IMG/VR virus record: IMGVR_UViG_2534681832_000017
Span: 1-37,193 of that record
Strand: one strand, 5' to 3'
Source of the DNA: a virus
Taxonomy: Duplodnaviria > Heunggongvirae > Uroviricota > Caudoviricetes
Length of the DNA stretch: 37,193 nt
In this document: piece after piece, positions 304 through 30,987 of the stretch
Numbering within the stretch: the first letter of the stretch is position 1
How the letters are laid out: each line of letters opens with the position of its first letter
Made by a program: the position numbers and the translations under genes
The notes under the pieces: generated by a model
The model's input: the letters and a program-made list of their open reading frames with translations, nothing else
Told to the model about the DNA's origin: nothing
The model's database searches: none

Positions 304-768
304 ATGCTCGCGCTTATGCGTAAGTCTCTGGGTTCTCTTCCTGCTGTTCCCCTGAGTGTTGAAAATCCCATTGAATTAACGCTGACCGACTGGGTACGTG
401 ATGGTAGTGCTCCACAGGGATTTCAAATGGGGGATGCGGCAGAACTTAAGGCAGTGCTTGAGGATGGCGGTATTGCCCGAGTGAAAAAGCAGGATTTGGG
501 AAGCGATGAAATTTCCACACACCTGGAAGCTGGCAAGCTCGTCACTAAGTTGGCACTCGACTGGCAGAACCGCATTAAATTTACACTGGACCATAACTTC
601 AGCCTTACCAGCGTCAAATTTGCGGATGAATTGCTTGAGCAGAACTCTGATATTGATAGTGAAGATGTTGCGCAGCGACTGGACGCAGATTTCTTCCTGT
701 TGACCAGTGAAATTTCGTGCCTGGTTGATGCTCTGGTAAATGCCCTTGGCGGAGAGGCTAAGCAGTGA
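304..768 (+). CDS. RdgC-like recombination-associated protein, C-terminal half only (possible truncated hrdC-type gene)
   Basis: ORF track; recalled RdgC C-terminal signature ([25 protein letters not shown]...LGGEA); in-frame similarity continues upstream only to a stop at 226-228, so the N-terminal half is missing; GTGA overlap with next gene. Confidence 0.45.
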
Positions 769-3700
769 AAGAGCTGTGCTATGGATCTGTTTGCAGTGGA
801 ATTGAAGCCGCGAGTATTGCCTGGGAACCGTTGGGTATGCGTCCGGCGTGGTTTGCTGAAATCGAGCCTTTTCCATCGGCCGTTCTTGCGCTCCGCTGGC
901 CCCATGTTGCCAACCTTGGCGACATGAAAAAACTTGCCAAAAAAGTCTTGGCTGGGGAAATCGAATCCCCTGACGTGCTCGTCGGGGGAACACCATGTTT
1001 TACCGCGGGGCATATGGTTCTTTGTAAAAATGGCTATAAACCAATAGAAAATGTTTGCCCTGGTGATTACGTAGTCAGTCATCTCGGGCGGTTACAACAA
1101 GTAAAAAGAGTTGGTTCAAAAATAGCTAATACGGGGTTACTTAATGCCGTTGGGCAGCCTTTAGGTATAAGAACAACCAATGACCATCCCTTCCTGGCTG
1201 TTCGGTGGAAAGCCCAAAACACCCGGAAAAATGGCACATATTTTAAGAGAGAGTTGTTGTCTGAACCGGAATGGCGAGCAGCATGTGATATGCCGGGATA
1301 TCAATGGTGCGCTCTAACTAATTTCAATATTGCATTTCCAGATATTTGTTCTCGGTTCTTGTCTGAAGAACAGGCTATGTATCTTGCGGGCGCTTATGTT
1401 GGCGATGGATATATTAGGAGATGGAGAGGTAAATCTAAGAAGGCGGTTGTTTTTGGCATAAATTGCCAGAAATTGAGAAAGTTTCATTGCCGCATACCAG
1501 AAAACATATTTTCCGTGGCAAGCGAAATCCGAGGGAGCATCAAAGTAACCTTGAATGATACGTGTTATGCCAATTGGCTTAATGAACATTTTGGCGAGTT
1601 AAGCCATGCTAAGCGTATCCCTGCATGGGTGATGTCGCATCCATTGCGTCATGTGTTTTTACAAGGCTATCTTGATACTGATGGGACACCAAGTGGTAAA
1701 GCGGGATTTAGAATTAATAGTGTTAGTTCTGCGCTTGCTTGGGGCGTTGCGGGGTTGTCACAGACTTGTGGTTATGTTTCTTCGGTCAGCTTTATTGAAG
1801 TTGAGCCCAAAAAAGTGATCGAGGATCGCGTGGTAAATCAACGGAATTATTATCAGGTAACAATCTGCCCGCAGAAATTGTCACGTAAATCAAGATTGGC
1901 TCATGGAATGCTTTTACGAACAGTCAAAGAGTTTAAATCGGTAGGCCTAGATACTGTATACAACATAGAAGTCGAAGGTGATCATTCCTATATCCTCAAT
2001 GGTGCGGTGGTCCATAACTGTCAGGCATTCAGTATCGCGGGATTACGTGGTGGGCTTGATGATGAGCGTGGCGCGCTAACTTTAAAGTATGTGGAGCTTG
2101 CAAATGCAATTGACGACAAACGGGCTGAGTCATTTCTCAAACCAGCCGTTATCGTCTGGGAAAATGTCCCAGGAGTCTTGTCATCGGCAGATAACGCCTT
2201 CGGATGTTTCCTTGCCGGATTGGCTGGAGAAGATGTGCCATTTGAACCAGGTGATCGACCTGAATCAGGAAAAAGCAACGCGTTCTGGCGGTGGGATGGC
2301 AAAACCGGTTGCCATGTTCCAAAGTGGCCGCAGTGTGGTTGTATTTATGGACCGCAGCGAAAAGTGGCTTGGAGAATCCTTGATGCCCAATACTTCGGAG
2401 TGGCACAACGACGCCGACGCGTGTTTGTTGTCGCAAGTGCTCGAACAGATCTCGATCCCGCAACGGTACTTTTTGAGTTCGAAGGCGTGCGCCGGAATAT
2501 TGCGCCGAGCAGAGGCGAGGGGAAGGAAACTACCAGATATACTTCAAACATCGCTATCAGAACTTGCGATGATACAAACATAATTGCCATGGCACATGGG
2601 CAAGGAGGGGCTGAGATAAAAACCGATAATTCGGCACCAACTTTGACATGTAACCATGAAGCACCAATTGTATTGCTCGGCGACGGTAGAATGCGCCGTC
2701 TTACCCCTGTCGAATGTGAAAGGCTGCAAGGTTTTCCTGATTGGCATACGTTGATCCCTACGGAAAAGCGTAAAAAAGTTAATTCAGATGAACTGGCATA
2801 TCTGCACAATCACTATCCAGATTTAAGCGAAGAAGAGGCCGCAATGCTTGCAGCTGACGGACCGCGTTACAAAGCGATCGGCAATAGTATGGCAATACCA
2901 GTAATGCGCTGGATTGGCGATCGGATTACTAAGGCCGTATGTCGGCAGAAAGAAGGAAGTGAAACAAAAGAGCGAAAAGTTAAACCAGCGGCAGAATTCG
3001 AACGGTCCATATTCAAATGGGCTGGTGGAAAATTTGGTGTTCTGGAACAAATCTTTCGCTATTTGCCAGAAGGGAAGCGCCTGATTGAACCTTTCGTTGG
3101 TGGCGGAGCTGTCTTCATGAATGCCGGATACCAGGAAAATCTGCTAAATGATGTGAATGCTGACCTGATTAACTTTTACAAGACTCTGCAACGCGAGGCG
3201 CATTCACTTATCACTCTGGCACATCGTTTCTTCCAGGACTACAACACACAGGAAGGATACCTGGCAGTACGGAATGCGTTTAACAAACAAGTCTATGATG
3301 ATTTACATCGCGCAGCGGCGTTTTTGTTCCTGAACCGACATTGTTTTAACGGATTGACGCGTTACAACCAGGCCGGTGAGTTCAATGTCGGTTATGGGAA
3401 GTATAAAACTCCGTATTTCCCATTACAGGAGATGGAAGCCTTCCTCGGTGCGGAAGGGCGGTCTGAGTTTGTATGCGGTGATTTTGCAGCGGTGATTGAA
3501 GCTGCCGGAGAAGGAGATGTCATCTTTTGCGATCCGCCGTATGAACCGCTTCCAAATACAGAGGGATTCACGAACTATTCCGGTCATGACTTTAAGTTTG
3601 AAGAGCAAAAACGCCTGGTGTCTCTGTTGACGGATGCTCATCGTCGAGGTGCAAAGGTTCTCATTACTAACAGTGGCGCGCCAAACATCAGAGAGCTTTA

Positions 3701-3806
3701 TCATGACAGTGGCTTCAGAGTGGAACCTCTTTTTGCCAGACGTTCTGTGTCTTGTAAGGGGGACACTCGAGGTGTAGCTCATGACGTTTTTGGTATATTG
3801 CTCTAA
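765..3806 (+). CDS. dmt: bifunctional DNA methyltransferase: N-terminal C5-cytosine MTase (interrupted by intein) fused to C-terminal Dam-type N6-adenine MTase
   Basis: GTG start coupled to upstream gene; C5 motifs: GGTP|CQAFSIAG (PCQ, split by insert), [28 protein letters not shown]; Dam motifs: [24 protein letters not shown]. Confidence 0.85.
996..2018 (+). mobile_element. intein (341 codons) with LAGLIDADG homing-endonuclease domain, inserted at catalytic Cys of the C5-MTase PCQ motif
   Basis: Insert begins CFTAGHMV (Hint block A-like), contains TTNDHPF (block B-like), [12 protein letters not shown] (1380-1415) and [11 protein letters not shown] (1656-1688), ends NGAVVHN followed by Cys+1 (2019); excision restores [12 protein letters not shown]. 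Confidence 0.8.
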
Positions 3807-3813: not shown

Positions 3814-3987
3814 ATTAGTGTAATATCGCCTCAATGAATCGTGATTTATAGAGCGATTTAGCTGTTAGCCGCGACAGGCGCGGCGGTAAGCATGGCTGGG
3901 CCTAGTCCTCCCAGACAAACCACCGAGTTGCCAGGTTGACCATGCGCCTAAGTGGCAACGCCGAAGTGCGTTACGAGCTTCCAGTTT

Positions 3988-22534: not shown

Positions 22535-22766
22535 ACAGAACGAAAAAGCTATCGCTCAAATTGCTGATTATATCCCGCGTGCGTGCCGGGGTATGCAGTT
22601 GCAGGAAGCCAAAGCGCGCCTGGAGAAAAAAATTGCGCTCTATATTGATGACGGCTGTGATGCTGCCGTTCTTAACGCGGCGTTCGCACCAGCTCTTAAC
22701 AGTCATACTCGGGAGTCTTTTTTTTCGTGCATCGAAGCGCAACTCCGCAAAGGAGGCAGCCAGTGA
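22527..22766 (+). CDS. hypothetical small protein
   Basis: ORF track; stop overlaps GTG start of next gene. Confidence 0.45.
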   Translation: MFKQNEKAIAQIADYIPRACRGMQLQEAKARLEKKIALYIDDGCDAAVLNAAFAPALNSHTRESFFSCIEAQLRKGGSQ

Positions 22767-23464
22767 GCGAAATTAATTACCGGGCACTGCGTGAGATAGC
22801 AAAACAGGCAACACAGGGCGAATGGGTCGCATTTATTTCGCCGGGTACTGGTACGTATGCGGTGCACACGCCCGGTGATGAACGATGTGAAGACGTTATC
22901 AAATGGACCGGCTTTGATGGACAGAAAAATGCAGAGAACAACGCTCGTCATGTTGCCGCGTTCAACCCAAAGGTTGCACTGGAGCTGCTTGGTGAAATTA
23001 AGTGCTTGGAGGACACAAATATTGATGCCACGTGCCGAATTTCAGAGCTTGAGACTAATCTCGCGGCGCTGGTGGCAGAGAACGCCGGGCTGAAACACGC
23101 AATGGCCGTAACTCTTGAGCATGTGTCGGTCACGGATGCAGGGCAGGCTGGTGTTGCTGCAATGATTATCAACGATGCCCTACACCACAGCGAAACTCCA
23201 GCTACCGATGCTTTTCTGGCTGAAATTCGTGCGGAAGCACGCAACGAGGGGATTAACTATACCGCCAGCCGTCTTGCTGCTGCGTTCAATCACGGATTTA
23301 TCAATAAGTCTTTGCGTGAAGTTTTCGACGTTACACGCATGATTTTGTCAGCGAAAGAAGAGTTGGCTAATGAACCGTACCCGATTGATGGCCTGTCTGG
23401 TGAATATGCGGAGAAATCCCTTGAAGAATGGGCGGAACAGATTAGCAAAGGAGGCAACCAGTGA
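22763..23464 (+). CDS. Ead/Ea22-like protein, paralogue 1
   Basis: GTG start in AAGGAGGCAGCCAGTGA coupling motif; N-terminus VSEINYRALREIAKQATQGEW matches paralogue at 23943. Confidence 0.5.
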   Translation: MSEINYRALREIAKQATQGEWVAFISPGTGTYAVHTPGDERCEDVIKWTGFDGQKNAENNARHVAAFNPKVALELLGEIKCLEDTNIDATCRISELETNLAALVAENAGLKHAMAVTLEHVSVTDAGQAGVAAMIINDALHHSETPATDAFLAEIRAEARNEGINYTASRLAAAFNHGFINKSLREVFDVTRMILSAKEELANEPYPIDGLSGEYAEKSLEEWAEQISKGGNQ

Positions 23465-23946
23465 CTTTACATGCAGCAATCCTCGACATGTGCTGTGGCA
23501 GTCGCATGTTCTGGTTCGATAAGAAGGACGACCGGGCGATATTTAGCGATATCAGAAAGGAAGAGCACACATTGTGTGATGGACGACGGCTGATAATTAG
23601 CCCTGACCTGATAGCAGATTTTCGTGCATTACCATTTGCAGACGCATCGTTTCCGATTGTTGTATTCGACCCTCCGCATCTTGAGCGTGTTGGTGATAAC
23701 GCCTGGATGGGAAAGAAATATGGACGGCTGAATAAAGATACCTGGCGTGATGATTTGCGGCAGGGATTTAAAGAAGCCTTTCGTGTGTTGTGGCCATACG
23801 GCGTTCTGATTTTTAAATGGAATGAAACGCAAATACCTGTTCGCCAAATATTGGCACTGACCGACAGAAAGCCTGTTATCGGTCAACGAACAGGAAAGGG
23901 TGACAAGACCCACTGGATTATTTTTATGAAGGAGGGCAACCAGTGA
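23461..23946 (+). CDS. small putative DNA amino-methyltransferase (DPPH motif)
   Basis: GTG start, GTGA coupling; motif I-like ILDMCCGSRMFWFD and motif IV-like IVVFDPPH. Confidence 0.5.
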   Translation: MTLHAAILDMCCGSRMFWFDKKDDRAIFSDIRKEEHTLCDGRRLIISPDLIADFRALPFADASFPIVVFDPPHLERVGDNAWMGKKYGRLNKDTWRDDLRQGFKEAFRVLWPYGVLIFKWNETQIPVRQILALTDRKPVIGQRTGKGDKTHWIIFMKEGNQ

Positions 23947-24716
23947 GCGAGATTGACTATCAGGCGCTGCGTGAAGCAGCAGAGAAAGCAACTAAAGGAT
24001 GCTACATCGTAGGGCATACATCGGGCAATCAGCATGAGAATATAACAGGAGTTTTTGTTTGTCAAAAATGGAAAGGAGAACCCGGTGGCGTAATTGCAGA
24101 ATGTCATGTTAACTGCCTGATTGAATCAGATGATCAGGCTTATGCAAACGCTGAATTCATAGCAGAGGCTAACCCGGCTACCGTGCTGGCACTGCTGGAT
24201 GAACAGGAAAGAAACCAGCAATACATCAAACGCCGCGACCAGGAGAACGAGGAGATTGCGCTTACGGTTGGGAAGCTGCGTGTTGAGCTTGAAGCAGCAG
24301 AGAACAACCTTATTGATAGTGAATGCCATGTTGCTGAACTGGAAGAAGCTCTACGCGATAAGCAGGCGTTACTTGAAGCCTCAGAAAAGCGCAACGCAAA
24401 ATTACAAAGCGAGAATGCATACATCCGCAACCGGTACAAAGAACTGGACCTATTAATCGGGAAAAACATTCTGGTCATGCAGGCTGCCATTATCGAATGG
24501 CAGGCAACTGGCGACGCTAAGAGCGGACTAGCATGGATTTATAACACACTGTTTGGCCCTGGCGAATTACCGGACGAATCTGAGAAAGATGCTCAGGCCT
24601 ACTTTAATCGCAAATATGCACCGATTGACGAAAAGCTTATGGCGCTTCACAAGTGGTTTTGGGAACAAAGTGAAGCCGAGCGCGCCGCTGGCATTCGCAT
24701 CAAAGGAGGTGAGTAA
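23943..24716 (+). CDS. Ead/Ea22-like protein, paralogue 2
   Basis: GTG start in same AGGGCAACCAGTGA coupling motif; N-terminus MSEIDYQALREAAEKATKG; central coiled coil. Confidence 0.5.
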   Translation: MSEIDYQALREAAEKATKGCYIVGHTSGNQHENITGVFVCQKWKGEPGGVIAECHVNCLIESDDQAYANAEFIAEANPATVLALLDEQERNQQYIKRRDQENEEIALTVGKLRVELEAAENNLIDSECHVAELEEALRDKQALLEASEKRNAKLQSENAYIRNRYKELDLLIGKNILVMQAAIIEWQATGDAKSGLAWIYNTLFGPGELPDESEKDAQAYFNRKYAPIDEKLMALHKWFWEQSEAERAAGIRIKGGE

Positions 24717-25057: not shown

Positions 25058-25267
25058 ATGGCTATTGCTGCAAGTTACACCATGCATCTCTATTGTGATT
25101 GCCTCCAGTGTACAGATGGCAAATATAAGTCGCCAGACTTCGGTGAGTATATAGGTACGTCATGGGCTGGCTGTGCAAAAGAGGCGCGCAAGGATGGCTG
25201 GCGAATAAGCAAAGACAAAACGCGTGCTTTTGCGCCCGGGCATAAAGTTTTGAGGATTAACAAATGA
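25058..25267 (+). CDS. small Cys-rich protein
   Basis: ATG one nt after upstream stop, SD AAAGGAGAG; CDCLQC...C motif. Confidence 0.45.
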   Translation: MAIAASYTMHLYCDCLQCTDGKYKSPDFGEYIGTSWAGCAKEARKDGWRISKDKTRAFAPGHKVLRINK

Positions 25268-26106
25268 CCACTATTACCAAAGAGCGACTGCTGACAATCA
25301 AGCAGTGGCGCGAAACATACGGACCTGGTAGCAACGTTGTACTGCCAGCAGAAGAAGCGGAAGAACTGGCACGGATTGCTCTGGCAGCGCTGGAAGCTGA
25401 ACCTGTTCTGTATCAGTCCTGCACTCGCCCCACTTGGAATAGCGGTGTTCCGTGGACGGAATGGAAAGAACGTAGTCGTGAGGGCTACGAAAACGATTTG
25501 CGCTTTACAGACACGCCTGACCATGCCGGTTGGATAAACAAATGCCGAAAACTATATACCACTCCGCCAGTTCCGGTAATACAGGCTGATGTCGCGCAAG
25601 CAATTGAAAACCTCAAGCAGAAGTTAGTGGAATGCAATCGCTATAACTACTGCGCAGATGCAGTTAAAGGCGTAGAGGATGCCTGCCGTGCTGTTAGCTA
25701 TAGCCAAGCCGACAATCAACCAGCATCTGGCAACCAGGCTGCCGAATCCAATCGCGGTAATGAGTGGACTGGCAATCCTGATATTGATAACGCCATCATC
25801 ATGCTCGACCGCATAGATACGCTGGAAAATTGCGATGATGACCGTATTGAGGCTGTTAAGGCTGTTTTGCGTAGACTGGCTGGCAACTCTCCGGTAACTC
25901 CGGATAGTTGGATAAGCTGTAGTGAGCGAATGCCGGAAGAAACGGGTGACATTATTGTTGTTTCTGATGGCATTGTAATGTCAGGGATTTCTTATTCTCG
26001 TCGTGACGGGTTCTATATAGCCGCATTGGAGTACGACGACGATGAGCCAATTGGCGGTGTAACCCACTGGATGCCGTTACCAGAACCGCCGCAGGAGGCA
26101 AAATGA
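25264..26106 (+). CDS. phage protein with DUF551-like C-terminal domain
   Basis: ORF track; C-terminus WISCSERMPEE...GVTHWMPLPEPP. Confidence 0.55.
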   Translation: MTTITKERLLTIKQWRETYGPGSNVVLPAEEAEELARIALAALEAEPVLYQSCTRPTWNSGVPWTEWKERSREGYENDLRFTDTPDHAGWINKCRKLYTTPPVPVIQADVAQAIENLKQKLVECNRYNYCADAVKGVEDACRAVSYSQADNQPASGNQAAESNRGNEWTGNPDIDNAIIMLDRIDTLENCDDDRIEAVKAVLRRLAGNSPVTPDSWISCSERMPEETGDIIVVSDGIVMSGISYSRRDGFYIAALEYDDDEPIGGVTHWMPLPEPPQEAK

Positions 26107-27342: not shown

Positions 27343-28013
27343 CTACTCTAACGACAGCATACTTACAGCAATTGGTATTTTTTGCAGGCGAGGCTACTTG
27401 TCATCCTGACGCAAACTATTTATTGGAATTTGAGAGGTTAGCGTCACCCGGTATCGTTCTGGAACTGGCCCAACAGGTGCTGGCCTTGAGACAAAAAGAG
27501 CAACATGAAAGTAATACGTGTAGATTGAATTTTGAGCAGTGGCTGGAACAGCAACGCGGAAAAATCGATGTGGACTGTGGTTGTGTGTCCACTGAAACAT
27601 TCATGCACTGGCTGCGGGTAGCTTACGAGGCTGGCAACTATCCGGATATTCCGGATATTCCGGATAGTTCGGTGCCAGCGCCAGGAAAGGGCGTCACAGG
27701 TGAACGTATCCGCATTAAGCCGCATGTTTATCGCGAACTGGTTAACCGTCTCCACGATACAGCGATCAAGTGTGCTGGCACCCAGCAATTACGAGAAAGA
27801 ATTAGCCGTGTTTTGGGCGACGTTATTACGCCAGACCATCATAAACAAGCCGAGAAAAGTGACCTGGAAAGGTGTCACCTTGAGGCGGCATTAAACATTA
27901 AGCCGGGGCATACGCTTGGCATTATCGATGCTCTGTTGGTTCATAAGATGGCCAGGGCTTTATTGCCGCTGGTGGCTGAAAAGCATGAGGCGGACCATGC
28001 CAACGAAAGCTGA
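27339..28013 (+). CDS. hypothetical protein
   Basis: ATGA overlap with upstream gene preferred over track start 27324. Confidence 0.5.
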   Translation: MTTLTTAYLQQLVFFAGEATCHPDANYLLEFERLASPGIVLELAQQVLALRQKEQHESNTCRLNFEQWLEQQRGKIDVDCGCVSTETFMHWLRVAYEAGNYPDIPDIPDSSVPAPGKGVTGERIRIKPHVYRELVNRLHDTAIKCAGTQQLRERISRVLGDVITPDHHKQAEKSDLERCHLEAALNIKPGHTLGIIDALLVHKMARALLPLVAEKHEADHANES

Positions 28014-28281
28014 GTTACAGGCGCGCATAGATATTCTTGAAAAAGAGAATGCGAGTCTAAAAGGAATGCTGGCGCGGGCGGAAAGGGAATTATCAGGCAA
28101 ATTATTGCCAGAAGAGCTGCCACCAGCAGATATACCTGATCGAGTGTCCTGGTGGATGAAGTATTTCCGTGCACCGTGGGAGGCGTTTTGGTGCTACGAC
28201 CATCGCAGATGGTGTGATGAGCTTGATAGCAGTTTCCCCTATTTTGCGGAAGGGAACTCTTGCCCTGAATGTAGGAGTTAA
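27997..28281 (+). CDS. hypothetical protein, paralogue A (Cys/His C-terminal motif)
   Basis: Internal ATG of track ORF; C-terminus PWEAFWCYDHRRWCDELDSSFPYFAEGNSCPEC. Confidence 0.45.
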   Translation: MPTKAELQARIDILEKENASLKGMLARAERELSGKLLPEELPPADIPDRVSWWMKYFRAPWEAFWCYDHRRWCDELDSSFPYFAEGNSCPECRS

Positions 28282-28586
28282 TGATGACCGGCGAGCTTTA
28301 TTTTAAAATGGCACGGGAGCGGCGTGTGCATCTGGATCGGATATTTCATCTCCAGAAGAGAGTAGAAGAACTGGAACGTCGTCTGAACTGTTATCCTGTT
28401 GATATGGTGTCTGCAATACCGCCGATTCCAATAGAAATGCAGATCCGCCTATGGATGGAAGAATATGGAATGCCGTGGGAGATATTTTTCTGCTTCGACC
28501 ATAAACAGTGGGTAGATGAGCTGGATAATAGTTTCCCATATTTCACAGAGAACACATGCCCAGTATGCAGGAAGAACGGAATATGA
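28281..28586 (+). CDS. hypothetical protein, paralogue B (Cys/His C-terminal motif)
   Basis: ORF track; TAATG coupling; C-terminus PWEIFFCFDHKQWVDELDNSFPYFTENTCPVC. Confidence 0.5.
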   Translation: MMTGELYFKMARERRVHLDRIFHLQKRVEELERRLNCYPVDMVSAIPPIPIEMQIRLWMEEYGMPWEIFFCFDHKQWVDELDNSFPYFTENTCPVCRKNGI

Positions 28587-29107
28587 CAAAATTTGGAAAG
28601 CTGGAAGCTCATTTGCTAACTCGTAACTACCGCCATGATATACACCCATATAGACAGTGGATCGATGAAAGTGAAGGAGTAGTTACATTCCCTCTATACA
28701 GGTTTGATGGGATGTTGGCTGGGTATCAGACATATAGACCAGGTGCTCCTAAGCAGCATAGCAATCCGAAGATGGCCCGGTATTTCACGCGATCACATGG
28801 CAGACAGTTACTTTGGGGAACCTATCTTCCTTTAAAAGATGGCCCAATATGGATAACTGAGTCTATTTTTAAGAGCGCAGCTGTACACAACGCGGGCGGC
28901 AATTCGTGGGCGCTGTTAGGTTCGACTTTCTCCGCAGGATTACGCCGTCAACTTGCGATGCTGCCGTATGACTTTCGTGTAATAGGTGACAATGATGCGG
29001 CTGGTGAATTACTTGTGAAGTCTTTCGGAAAAGGTTTTGTGGCCCCGGATCTTGACGAGCTACAACCACATGAAGTGTCTCATTTGATTTTTAGCCATAG
29101 CCAATAA
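28583..29107 (+). CDS. Toprim-domain-like protein
   Basis: ATGA overlap start; conserved Glu (IWITESIF) and DxD (VIGDNDAAGE) spacing typical of Toprim. Confidence 0.45.
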   Translation: MTKFGKLEAHLLTRNYRHDIHPYRQWIDESEGVVTFPLYRFDGMLAGYQTYRPGAPKQHSNPKMARYFTRSHGRQLLWGTYLPLKDGPIWITESIFKSAAVHNAGGNSWALLGSTFSAGLRRQLAMLPYDFRVIGDNDAAGELLVKSFGKGFVAPDLDELQPHEVSHLIFSHSQ

Positions 29108-29123
29108 GCATCTCTCCCCTTTG

Positions 29124-29142
29124 AGGCCACAATTAGTGGCCT
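29124..29142. terminator. hairpin between convergent genes (possible bidirectional terminator)
   Basis: Stem AGGCCAC/GTGGCCT with AATTA loop. Confidence 0.45.
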
Positions 29143-29167
29143 TAAACAATGTGTTTTCTACCTCGAT

Positions 29168-29383
29168 TTAGCCTCTATTATCGTTTTGCATTTCTCTAAT
29201 CCGGTTCAGAACTACTTCATGCTGGGCTTGGATAGCAGCTTTTTCGTTTTCAAGTCGGGCAATAGACATCTCTAATTCTTTGCTGTACCAGGCGAGTTGG
29301 GCCAGGTTCATCCGGTTGTGGTCGAGAGTTGGAGACACTTCGACGCGATCCCTTTCTTCCTGCTTTAATGAGAAGAGATTCAT
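29168..29383 (-). CDS. hypothetical small coiled-coil protein
   Basis: ORF track. Confidence 0.45.
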   Translation of the reverse strand: MNLFSLKQEERDRVEVSPTLDHNRMNLAQLAWYSKELEMSIARLENEKAAIQAQHEVVLNRIREMQNDNRG

Positions 29384-29413
29384 CTCATCCCTTGAGGAAA
29401 ATTCAGCAACAAT

Positions 29414-29749
29414 TTATTGTTGATGATCCGGTCGCTGCGGCATCCTCGCCAGTATAAATGGCGGTTCTTTTGAAAACATGAATGTCGGTTCAGACCGTGT
29501 TTTTACCCAGCTTGCCTGCTGTCTTTCGGCAAGTTCACAGGCTTCATCATAGTTATTTGCCAAACCAAGCACGGATGGACGGTCCCACGCGCCACCATTC
29601 AGACAATAAACAACAATTTTCCCGTCAGGTTGTGTAACCCCATAGGGATGGTCCCACCAGACGTCCAGCTGAGCTTTAGAGCGTTTCTCGTTAGGAGTGC
29701 AGTCAAAATTTTTGGGCAATACAGGATCGAGAGGAATGCGGGCAGGCAT
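29414..29749 (-). CDS. hypothetical protein, divergent from humD and sharing its SOS-box region
   Basis: ORF track; 111 aa. Confidence 0.5.
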   Translation of the reverse strand: MPARIPLDPVLPKNFDCTPNEKRSKAQLDVWWDHPYGVTQPDGKIVVYCLNGGAWDRPSVLGLANNYDEACELAERQQASWVKTRSEPTFMFSKEPPFILARMPQRPDHQQ

Positions 29750-29884
29750 AGCTAATTCCTTATTAACTGATTGGCAACGAGGTTACGCTGATCCGTTGGT
29801 GATGAATAGTAGCAAAGCGCACAAAATCATCAGCGGTGGTTGATGTACGTAACGCGTTTGCACCAAAGGTGTCTCTTTAATGTA

Positions 29885-29904
29885 TACTGTATAAATGAAC
29901 AGTA
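29885..29904. promoter_or_regulatory. LexA (SOS) box
   Basis: TACTGTATAAATGAACAGTA fits CTGT-N8-ACAG; lies 20 nt upstream of humD start in the divergent region. Confidence 0.7.
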
Positions 29905-29923
29905 TTGTTGAGGTGAAAACGCT

Positions 29924-30313
29924 ATGGGCTTCCCTTCTCCTGCGGCGGATTATGTTGAAAGCCGAATTTCTCTTGATCAGCAACTAATCAGGCATCCATC
30001 AGCGACCTACTTCATGCGGGCGGCAGACAGCCATCACCGTGAGGGAATATTGCAGGGTGCTTTGCTGGTGGTTGATTCCTCGCTTACTCCGGTTGATGGT
30101 TCGCTGCTTGTCTGCGCTATGGAGGGTGAATATCGCATAAAGAGATACCGAAAGTATCCGCGCCAGCACCTGGAGGATTTAAGCACCGGGAAGAAAGAGG
30201 CGTTACCAGTAGATGACGATGGTTACACGGGTAGTAATGCTGTTTTTGGTGTGATCACTCATGTCATCAATGATGCCCGAAGTGGGGAATTTGATGATTG
30301 TCCGGTGATTTAA
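29924..30313 (+). CDS. humD: UmuD'-like protein (pre-processed UmuD homologue; S24 peptidase fold)
   Basis: Begins MGFPSPAADYVE.RI.L.Q.LI.HPSATYF, i.e. at the residue after the UmuD Cys24-Gly25 cleavage site; Ser and Lys of the catalytic dyad region present. Confidence 0.8.
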   Translation: MGFPSPAADYVESRISLDQQLIRHPSATYFMRAADSHHREGILQGALLVVDSSLTPVDGSLLVCAMEGEYRIKRYRKYPRQHLEDLSTGKKEALPVDDDGYTGSNAVFGVITHVINDARSGEFDDCPVI

Positions 30314-30385
30314 GCTGCAAAGTGCTGGTGCTTTATGCCTGTGAAGTTTATAATTGTGTACACATAACGAGTACACGAGGTGTTT

Positions 30386-30607
30386 ATGCAATCCATTAAC
30401 TTCCGTACCGCGCGTGGCAACCTTTCTGAAGTGCTCAACAATGTTGAAGCCGGGGAAGAGGTTGAAATCACCCGCAGAGGCCGTGAGCCAGCAGTAATTG
30501 TCAGCAAGGCTACTTTCGAAGCCTACAAAAAAGCGGCGCTGGATGCTGAATTTGCATCCCTGTTTGACACCCTGGACTCCACCAACAAGGAACTGGTTAA
30601 CCGATAA
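30386..30607 (+). CDS. phd: Phd antitoxin
   Basis: 73 aa [39 protein letters not shown]... matches P1 Phd as I recall it; SD GAGGTG; ATGA-type coupling to doc. Confidence 0.9.
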
Positions 30608-30987
30608 TGAGGCATATATCACCGGAAGAACTTATTGCGCTTCATGATGCGAATATAAACCGCTACGGCGGCCTGCCGGGAATGTCAGATCCGGGTAGGG
30701 CAGAGGCCATTATCGGGAGAGTTCAGGCCAGAGTTGCCTACGAAGAGATCACCGACCTTTTCGAAGTCTCCGCCACCTACCTGGTGGCTACGGCGAGAGG
30801 GCATATATTCAATGATGCCAATAAGCGTACCGCGCTAAACAGTGCGCTGCTATTCCTACGCCGTAACGGGGTGCAGGTATTTGACTCACCTGAACTGGTA
30901 GACCTTACCGTAGGGGCTGCGACCGGAGAGATATCTGTATCTTCTGTCGCCGACACGTTACGTAGATTGTATGGTTCCGCGGAGTAG
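30607..30987 (+). CDS. doc: Doc toxin (Fic-fold kinase)
   Basis: 126 aa; [11 protein letters not shown] Fic-like motif; immediately follows phd. Confidence 0.9.

Follow-up and report, generated by a model that had tools for sequence, protein, structure and literature searches.

HumD of a P1-type phage-plasmid: a pre-truncated UmuD' homologue behind a conserved LexA operator, next to an interrupted lxr gene

Overview

The window analysed here, a continuous stretch of 37,193 nucleotides of viral DNA, carries the humD gene of a P1-type phage-plasmid (29924..30313, + strand), which encodes a UmuD'-like protein of 129 residues and stands immediately downstream of a LexA operator that is conserved across seven phage loci, with no umuC in the ORFs scanned. 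It is very probable that this gene is repressed by LexA, that it supplies a ready-made UmuD' form, and that its product partners the UmuC of the host; for LexA binding, the promoter and the partnership with UmuC, this account leans on inference and on the literature. Since 1999, HumD has served as the textbook case of pre-activated UmuD' provided by a mobile element, by which the RecA-dependent timing step of SOS mutagenesis is skipped. Both humD and its LexA operator are already known, from McLenigan et al. 1999 and from the P1 and P7 genome annotations, and the main use of the present result is as a positive control, since gene, truncation and operator had been correctly recognised from raw sequence. 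Minor leads are a seemingly decaying allele of the divergent gene lxr, an uncharacterised Lxr domain family and an apparent intein within the Dmt methyltransferase.

Genomic setting of humD

Similarity and gene order identify the window as part of a P1-type phage-plasmid (Punavirus). A megablast search with 29100..30700 returned P1, P7, SJ46 and JL22 at ~98% identity, with lxr, humD, phd and doc as the annotated features, and synteny across lxr-humD-phd-doc is common to the window, P1, P7 and SJ46. The longer order lxr-humD-phd-doc-pdcA-pdcB-lpa-pacAB is the same as in P1; the window has in common with P1 (AF234172) and P7 (AF503408) the HumD protein, its LexA operator and the downstream run phd-doc-pdcA-pdcB-lpa-pacAB. 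Next to humD, the antitoxin gene phd (30386..30607, +) and the toxin gene doc (30607..30987, +) were assigned by the Pfam families PhdYeFM_antitox and Fic/DOC, respectively, together with the P1 annotation, and Pfam matches elsewhere in the window include DUF968/PdcB, Dmt, DnaB/Ban and KilA-type proteins. At full length, the window is matched most closely by non-mobilisable E. coli plasmids of 92-100 kb, which are P1-like phage-plasmids.

A preceding sequence-only reading of the same DNA had remarked on the missing umuC partner, and this was upheld for the set that was covered: the Pfam domain of Y-family polymerases (IMS) occurs in none of the 20 ORFs scanned, these being all ten ORFs of at least 330 aa and ten of the thirteen ORFs of 200-330 aa, and the immediate neighbours of humD are lxr on one side and phd-doc on the other. 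By gene order and by the same 20-ORF scan, an operon with umuC is absent at humD.

To the left of lxr, the window departs from P1. The stretch 27916..29107 (+) stands where P1 has hot and upfM-O, and it contains adjacent small paralogous ORFs of 121 and 101 aa that have in common the C-terminal motif W..F..DH..W.DELD.SFPYF...CP.CR; the 183-aa ORF that follows this pair bears the RefSeq name 'toprim domain-containing protein' in sister plasmids. Farther to the left, tandem Ead/Ea22-like paralogues of 245 and 257 aa (22727..24716, +) and a gene for a DUF551 protein (25264..26106) are accessory content that is not found at that position in the P1 reference.

HumD as a pre-truncated UmuD' homologue

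The coding sequence of humD begins with an ATG and yields 129 residues, the N-terminus of which reads MGFPSPAADYVE. A Shine-Dalgarno sequence, GAGGTG (29910..29915, +), lies 8 nt 5' of the start codon, and an in-frame TGA (29909..29911, +) stands four codons 5' of it, both of these being direct readings of the letters; because of this TGA, a longer N-terminus or a UmuD-type tail is excluded. The protein is identical to HumD of P7 over all 129 residues (100%) and to HumD of P1 over 128 of 129 (99%), the sole change being at residue 103, which is Gly in the window and in P7, unlike the Cys of P1. The likeness to P1 humD that had been pointed out from the letters alone is therefore literally correct. 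Compared with E. coli UmuD, to which it is 45% identical, HumD begins its alignment at G25, so that Met1 takes the place of Cys24 in the Cys24-Gly25 cleavage site, and its first 11 residues after the cleavage point, GFPSPAADYVE, are the same as those of UmuD'. The positions of the Ser-Lys dyad are likewise in register, with Ser36 and Lys73 of HumD aligning with Ser60 and Lys97 of UmuD. As a separate observation, the residue that follows the nucleophile position (Ser36 in the window, codon at 30029..30031) is His in the HumD family, as opposed to the Met found in UmuD and LexA.

Two statements of the sequence-only reading, namely that the ORF starts with the first residues of UmuD' and that it encodes the activated form directly, are borne out by the start of the alignment at G25 and by the stop codon four codons before the ATG. 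In the UmuD alignment, the N-terminal arm with its Cys/Ala-Gly cleavage site is absent from HumD, which therefore is UmuD'-like and not a full-length UmuD; by Pfam and NCBIfam, an N-terminal helix-turn-helix (HTH) DNA-binding domain is absent as well, and the 129 residues consist of the S24 domain only.

Searches against structures and curated families lead to the same assignment. In the PDB, HumD matched UmuD' in 1umu (E=2.4e-23, residue 1 of the chain being aligned with residue 2 of HumD) and 1i4v (E=1.2e-22) and full-length UmuD in 8gmt_B (E=2.6e-22, aligned over residues 25-136), and the best LexA value was that of 8gms_A (E=4.6e-4). The NCBIfam equivalog model NF051876, 'HumD family translesion DNA polymerase', scored 220.2 bits against a curated cut-off of 120 bits, spanning residues 1-129 of a 129-position profile, and the other NCBIfam models gave 88 bits (Pol V UmuD subfamily) and 28 bits (LexA). 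The matching PHROG is 811, 'UmuD-like protein', and Pfam gives PF00717 (Peptidase_S24) with E=5.7e-9, the generic S24 domain alone.

The family was sampled as the best 120 clusters at 90% identity found with HumD, which come from Escherichia, Citrobacter, Salmonella, Enterobacter, Kluyvera and Klebsiella. Within this sample, 104 of the 120 clusters start with MGFPSP and 100 have a length of 127-130 aa; many bear the name 'HumD family translesion DNA polymerase', and some are entitled 'LexA family transcriptional regulator'. The few longer entries that were inspected contain an internal MGFPSP or MDFPSP and look like over-extended gene calls. When the 120 clusters were aligned together with the window protein (121 sequences), the S24 nucleophile position was occupied by Ser in 83, by Thr in 37 and by Ala in one, and the general-base Lys (Lys73) was retained in 117. 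This pattern of Ser-to-Thr replacement fits a family that would have no further need for self-cleavage.

Relation to other UmuD-type proteins

With E. coli UmuD and UmuD' (1umu, 1i4v, 1ay9 and 8gmt), HumD shares the S24 fold, the Ser/Lys dyad and an upstream TACTGT-N8-ACAGTA. It differs from UmuD in having neither the 24-residue N-terminal tail nor the Cys-Gly site, and therefore needs no RecA-dependent activation step. Other differences from UmuD are its position outside a umuC operon, a 4-residue insertion and a 10-residue acidic C-terminal extension. Members of the umuD family that are SOS-controlled and located on mobile elements include, according to PMC7092418 and PMC8460599, MucA (pKM101), ImpA, RumA (R391) and SamA. 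By their descriptions, these are set apart from HumD as full-length proteins that are cleaved to the prime form, and each, unlike HumD, is encoded together with a polymerase gene of its own (mucB, impB, rumB and samB). The NF051876 proteins of N15-type and other enterobacterial prophages, for their part, are of the same length class as HumD, have the MGFPSP start and are 67-75% identical to it; the P1 annotation similarly gives 69% identity between HumD and N15 gp26. Unlike HumD, these prophage proteins stand in other genomic contexts, and ~30% carry Thr at the nucleophile position instead of Ser.

The LexA operator

The operator, TACTGTATAAATGAACAGTA, occupies 29885..29904, and its CTGT-N8-ACAG core is 29887..29902. 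An SOS box about 20 bp upstream of the ORF had been proposed, and by direct count the 20-mer ends 19 nt, and the core 21 nt, before the humD ATG. Relative to the LexA 20-mer consensus TACTGTATATATATACAGTA, 17 of 20 positions agree, with all three mismatches in the AT-rich spacer and both half-sites perfect. A search of the window for that consensus at up to three mismatches returned this one match, at 29885, and returned none in any of 100 dinucleotide-preserving shuffles. The site aligns with the P1 feature protein_bind 87545..87564 (AF234172), which is described there as a site for LexA in the DNA that regulates lxr and humD, and with the corresponding P7 feature, which is assigned to the control of humD expression; the only operator difference from P1 is one base just outside the 20-mer. 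In PMC9603915, humD is given as a LexA-regulated SOS gene. The Ref paper, PMC4713147, uses humD only as a control gene outside C1 regulation and contains no LexA data on humD.

The shorter motif CTGT-N8-ACAG was seen twice in the window, against 0.34 expected. The second copy (3862..3877, CTGTTAGCCGCGACAG) lies just 3' of the dmt stop codon; it was rejected as a LexA site on account of its GC-rich spacer and the lack of a 20-mer consensus match at up to three mismatches, and is probably a chance occurrence.

Conservation of the operator was followed by aligning the 145 nt that precede humD in the window, P1, P7, RCS47, D6, Cyrano and CMS-2020a. All seven loci have TACTGT and ACAGTAT unchanged; between the half-sites, the 8 nt of spacer read ATAAATGA, ATGAATAA, ATGTGTAT or GTAAATGA; and the distance from operator to ATG differs by at most 3 nt. 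5' of the box, the phage groups have unrelated DNA and different neighbouring genes: P1, P7 and the window have lxr there, in the opposite orientation; RCS47 and D6 have hot, in the same orientation as humD; and Cyrano has no gene within 800 bp 5' of humD. Invariant half-sites combined with variable spacer and flanks make up the footprint that would be expected for a LexA operator belonging to the humD module.

Candidate promoters

A strict consensus scan of 29350..30400 detected no sigma-70 promoter. The best match of a relaxed scan was a weak one, agreeing at 8 of 12 positions, and forms the candidate sigma-70 promoter of humD (29858..29888, +), with TTGCAC at 29858..29863, a 19-nt spacer and TATACT at 29883..29888; the left half-site of the LexA box shares bases with this candidate -10. 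In RCS47, D6 and CMS-2020a as well, TATACT follows a -35-like element at the same spacing. On the opposite strand, the relaxed scan gave a weak candidate (TCAACA, a 16-nt spacer and CAGTAT; 29911..29884), with which the operator would fall between the two hexamers, -35 and -10, of a leftward promoter. The P1 annotation predicts PhumD at 87080..87106, ~460 bp further upstream and within lxr. That region is missing from RCS47, D6 and Cyrano, and hence is not the conserved promoter. From the overlap at the proximal candidate, occlusion of the -10 would be the most likely mechanism of repression by LexA, and a weak promoter would fit the poor natural expression that McLenigan et al. 1999 reportedly found for HumD.

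Downstream of the gene, the scan located no intrinsic terminator in 30314..30385, between the humD stop codon and phd, and for this reason SOS-induced humD transcripts might read through the Pphd operator region into phd-doc.

The divergent gene lxr

On the other side of the operator, the sequence-only reading had placed a divergent gene of 111 aa. The ORF exists (29414..29749, -), but it is no gene in its own right: it belongs to lxr, of which it forms the 5' part, cut off by a premature TAA at 29414..29416. In the DNA alignment, base 29416 is A in the window versus C in P1 and P7, which turns GAA into TAA at codon 112, and the 111 remaining codons correspond to positions 1-111 of the 194 of PHROG 6164. 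The 3' remainder (29168..29413, -) continues in the same frame and includes an ORF of 71 aa (29168..29383, -) that represents Lxr residues 123-193, a coiled coil. The window thus encodes no full-length Lxr of 190-194 aa, the TAA splitting it into the 111-aa and 71-aa ORFs, and in this it is unlike P1 and P7, where lxr is intact; intact products are P1 Lxr (190 aa), P7 Upf94.2 (194 aa) and the protein of pSBF45b, the closest plasmid (193 aa).

The same TAA is present in plasmid CP027590, the annotation pattern of ten further E. coli plasmid records, three O111 among them, suggests that lxr is split there in the same way, and the two pieces are kept apart as PHROG families 17145 and 10721. This recurrence across records shows the stop to be a true allele that is passed on by inheritance, and no sequencing error. 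In an AlphaFold2 (AF2) model of Lxr, the stop deletes a β-strand (112-117) and a helix (120-131), both of which are present in stand-alone homologues, and a long helix spans residues 149-192. Moreover, position 3 of Lxr is Ala in the window and Asn in at least 90% of 38 homologues. The lxr copy of the window is read as a pseudogene in early decay.

The P1 annotators supposed lxr to be under LexA and named it a 'LexA regulated function', which agrees with the sequence-only reading, where a second LexA-regulated gene had been envisaged as the divergent partner; the lxr ATG lies 135 nt from the SOS box. Shared control of lxr by LexA is proposed at the level of annotation, and the box is also kept with humD in phages that have no lxr. 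As to what Lxr might be, no Pfam or NCBIfam family was matched, a PDB sequence search gave nothing at E<0.1, and a Foldseek comparison of the Lxr model with viral models gave nothing at E<=0.001. PGAP names it a 'DNA-binding protein', and the N-terminal domain of the AF2 model is confident (pLDDT 88) and without a convincing fold match. The N-terminal ~125-130 aa are 49-66% identical to stand-alone proteins of 129-143 aa in Salmonella, Enterobacter, Burkholderia, Mesorhizobium, Xanthobacteraceae and Bradyrhizobium, which in the five genera of this list are carried on plasmids and phage-plasmids; in Bradyrhizobium, the gene lies between repA and the traI-trb genes of a repABC plasmid. This Lxr-N family is strongly conserved, with 27 invariant columns that include a WWDxP motif and CLxGG.

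LexA control as a trait of the whole Lxr-N family was considered and rejected, given that CTGT-N8-ACAG, the E. coli-type motif, from which the LexA motif of alphaproteobacteria differs, is absent from the 5.3-8.4 kb loci of stand-alone homologues on Salmonella and Bradyrhizobium plasmids. Were both strands under the control of the operator at 29885..29904, Lxr might act beside HumD as a mobile-element effector of a novel type, induced in the SOS response, a proposal that must be regarded as rather a long shot; were it true, the nonsense allele described here would be a natural knock-out. Both lxr and humD are dispensable for lytic growth of P1 in the CRISPRi screen of PMC10695390.

Function of HumD

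In the mechanism that is favoured here, host LexA bound at 29885..29904 would hold off transcription of humD by overlapping the -10 of the likeliest promoter, and DNA damage, through cleavage of LexA, would lead to the synthesis of HumD. Since HumD begins exactly where UmuD begins after RecA-stimulated self-cleavage, it would be in its active form without processing, and the RecA-dependent delay in the conversion of UmuD to UmuD' would be bypassed. A dimer of HumD with the UmuC of the host would then constitute a Pol V-like enzyme, the phage, in whose 20 scanned ORFs no umuC was found, presumably borrowing that of the host. The original study of 1999 is said to have found that HumD dimerises and binds both UmuC and RecA filaments, that it is poorly expressed, and that good complementation of UmuD' functions is obtained only from a high-copy plasmid; by the published work, HumD takes the place of UmuD' in translesion synthesis of the Pol V type. 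The P1 annotation of humD, too, states that it complements E. coli UmuD' functionally. The natural role of HumD may be other than mutagenesis as such.

In a different account, the main task of HumD would be to modulate the replisome or the SOS checkpoint of the host, to the advantage of the plasmid prophage, in concert with the theta homologue Hot. Like UmuD and UmuD', which are known to do so, it could bind, for example, alpha or beta of Pol III, RecA filaments or, in heterodimers, host UmuD. Arguing for such a role, hot, which encodes a Pol III theta homologue, directly precedes humD in the same orientation in RCS47 and D6, and in P1 it lies just past lxr. The occurrence of Thr as nucleophile in 37 of 121 sequences, with Lys73 kept in 117 of 121, similarly suggests selection on surfaces and not on catalysis, and the weak natural expression and weak low-copy complementation that the 1999 study reportedly found would fit as well. 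However, what was published on HumD in McLenigan et al. 1999, as paraphrased in PMC7092418, is that it complements UmuD' functions and binds UmuC. The two roles are indistinguishable by sequence and may hold together, but the replisome or checkpoint role as the main one is considered unlikely, and the Pol V-type partnership with host UmuC is retained as the preferred account.

Other alternatives concern not the role of HumD but its identity and its control. That the ORF is the C-terminal S24 half of a CI/LexA-type repressor minus its DNA-binding domain, i.e. a remnant without UmuD'-like function, would be in keeping with the generic Peptidase_S24 match of Pfam and with those homologue entries that are titled after LexA, and an alignment of the protein as a phage repressor C-terminal domain was what the sequence-only reading would have accepted against its UmuD' assignment. 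The scores came out on the side of UmuD', with UmuD' closer than LexA by ~19 orders of magnitude in the PDB search (2.4e-23 versus 4.6e-4) and the HumD model at 220 bits versus 28 for LexA, and these values rule out a repressor half as the identity of HumD. The shared GFPSPAADYVE at the N-terminus, the fixed length of 127-130 aa with its own Shine-Dalgarno sequence and ATG across many Enterobacteriaceae, and the conserved LexA operator also argue against a remnant, which is exceedingly improbable. Nearly as hard to sustain is the idea that the palindrome arose by chance or serves another regulator, and that transcription of humD is constitutive or starts at a remote promoter, for instance the PhumD predicted in lxr. 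The lack of a strong promoter at the box and the P1-annotated PhumD at its ~460-bp remove speak in its favour, but the 20-mer is absent from all 100 shuffles, and Cyrano, CMS-2020a, RCS47 and D6 keep TACTGT-N8-ACAGTA equally far from the start codon of humD although their DNA upstream of it, with the stretch of the distal predicted promoter, is unrelated; a chance palindrome is accordingly very unlikely.

An apparent intein in Dmt

Apart from the humD region, the Dmt methyltransferase ORF (765..3806, +) has a length of 1013 aa and contains Hint and LAGLIDADG domains. The insertion point is exactly at the catalytic PCQ motif of the C5-methylase (GGTP / CFTAGH...VVHN / CQAFS), and the insert of ~340 aa is an apparent intein, the +1 residue of which would be the catalytic Cys. 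In the literature searched, no paper on a Dmt intein was found. The P1 isolate OP279344 has an annotated dmt of equal length, 3042 nt.
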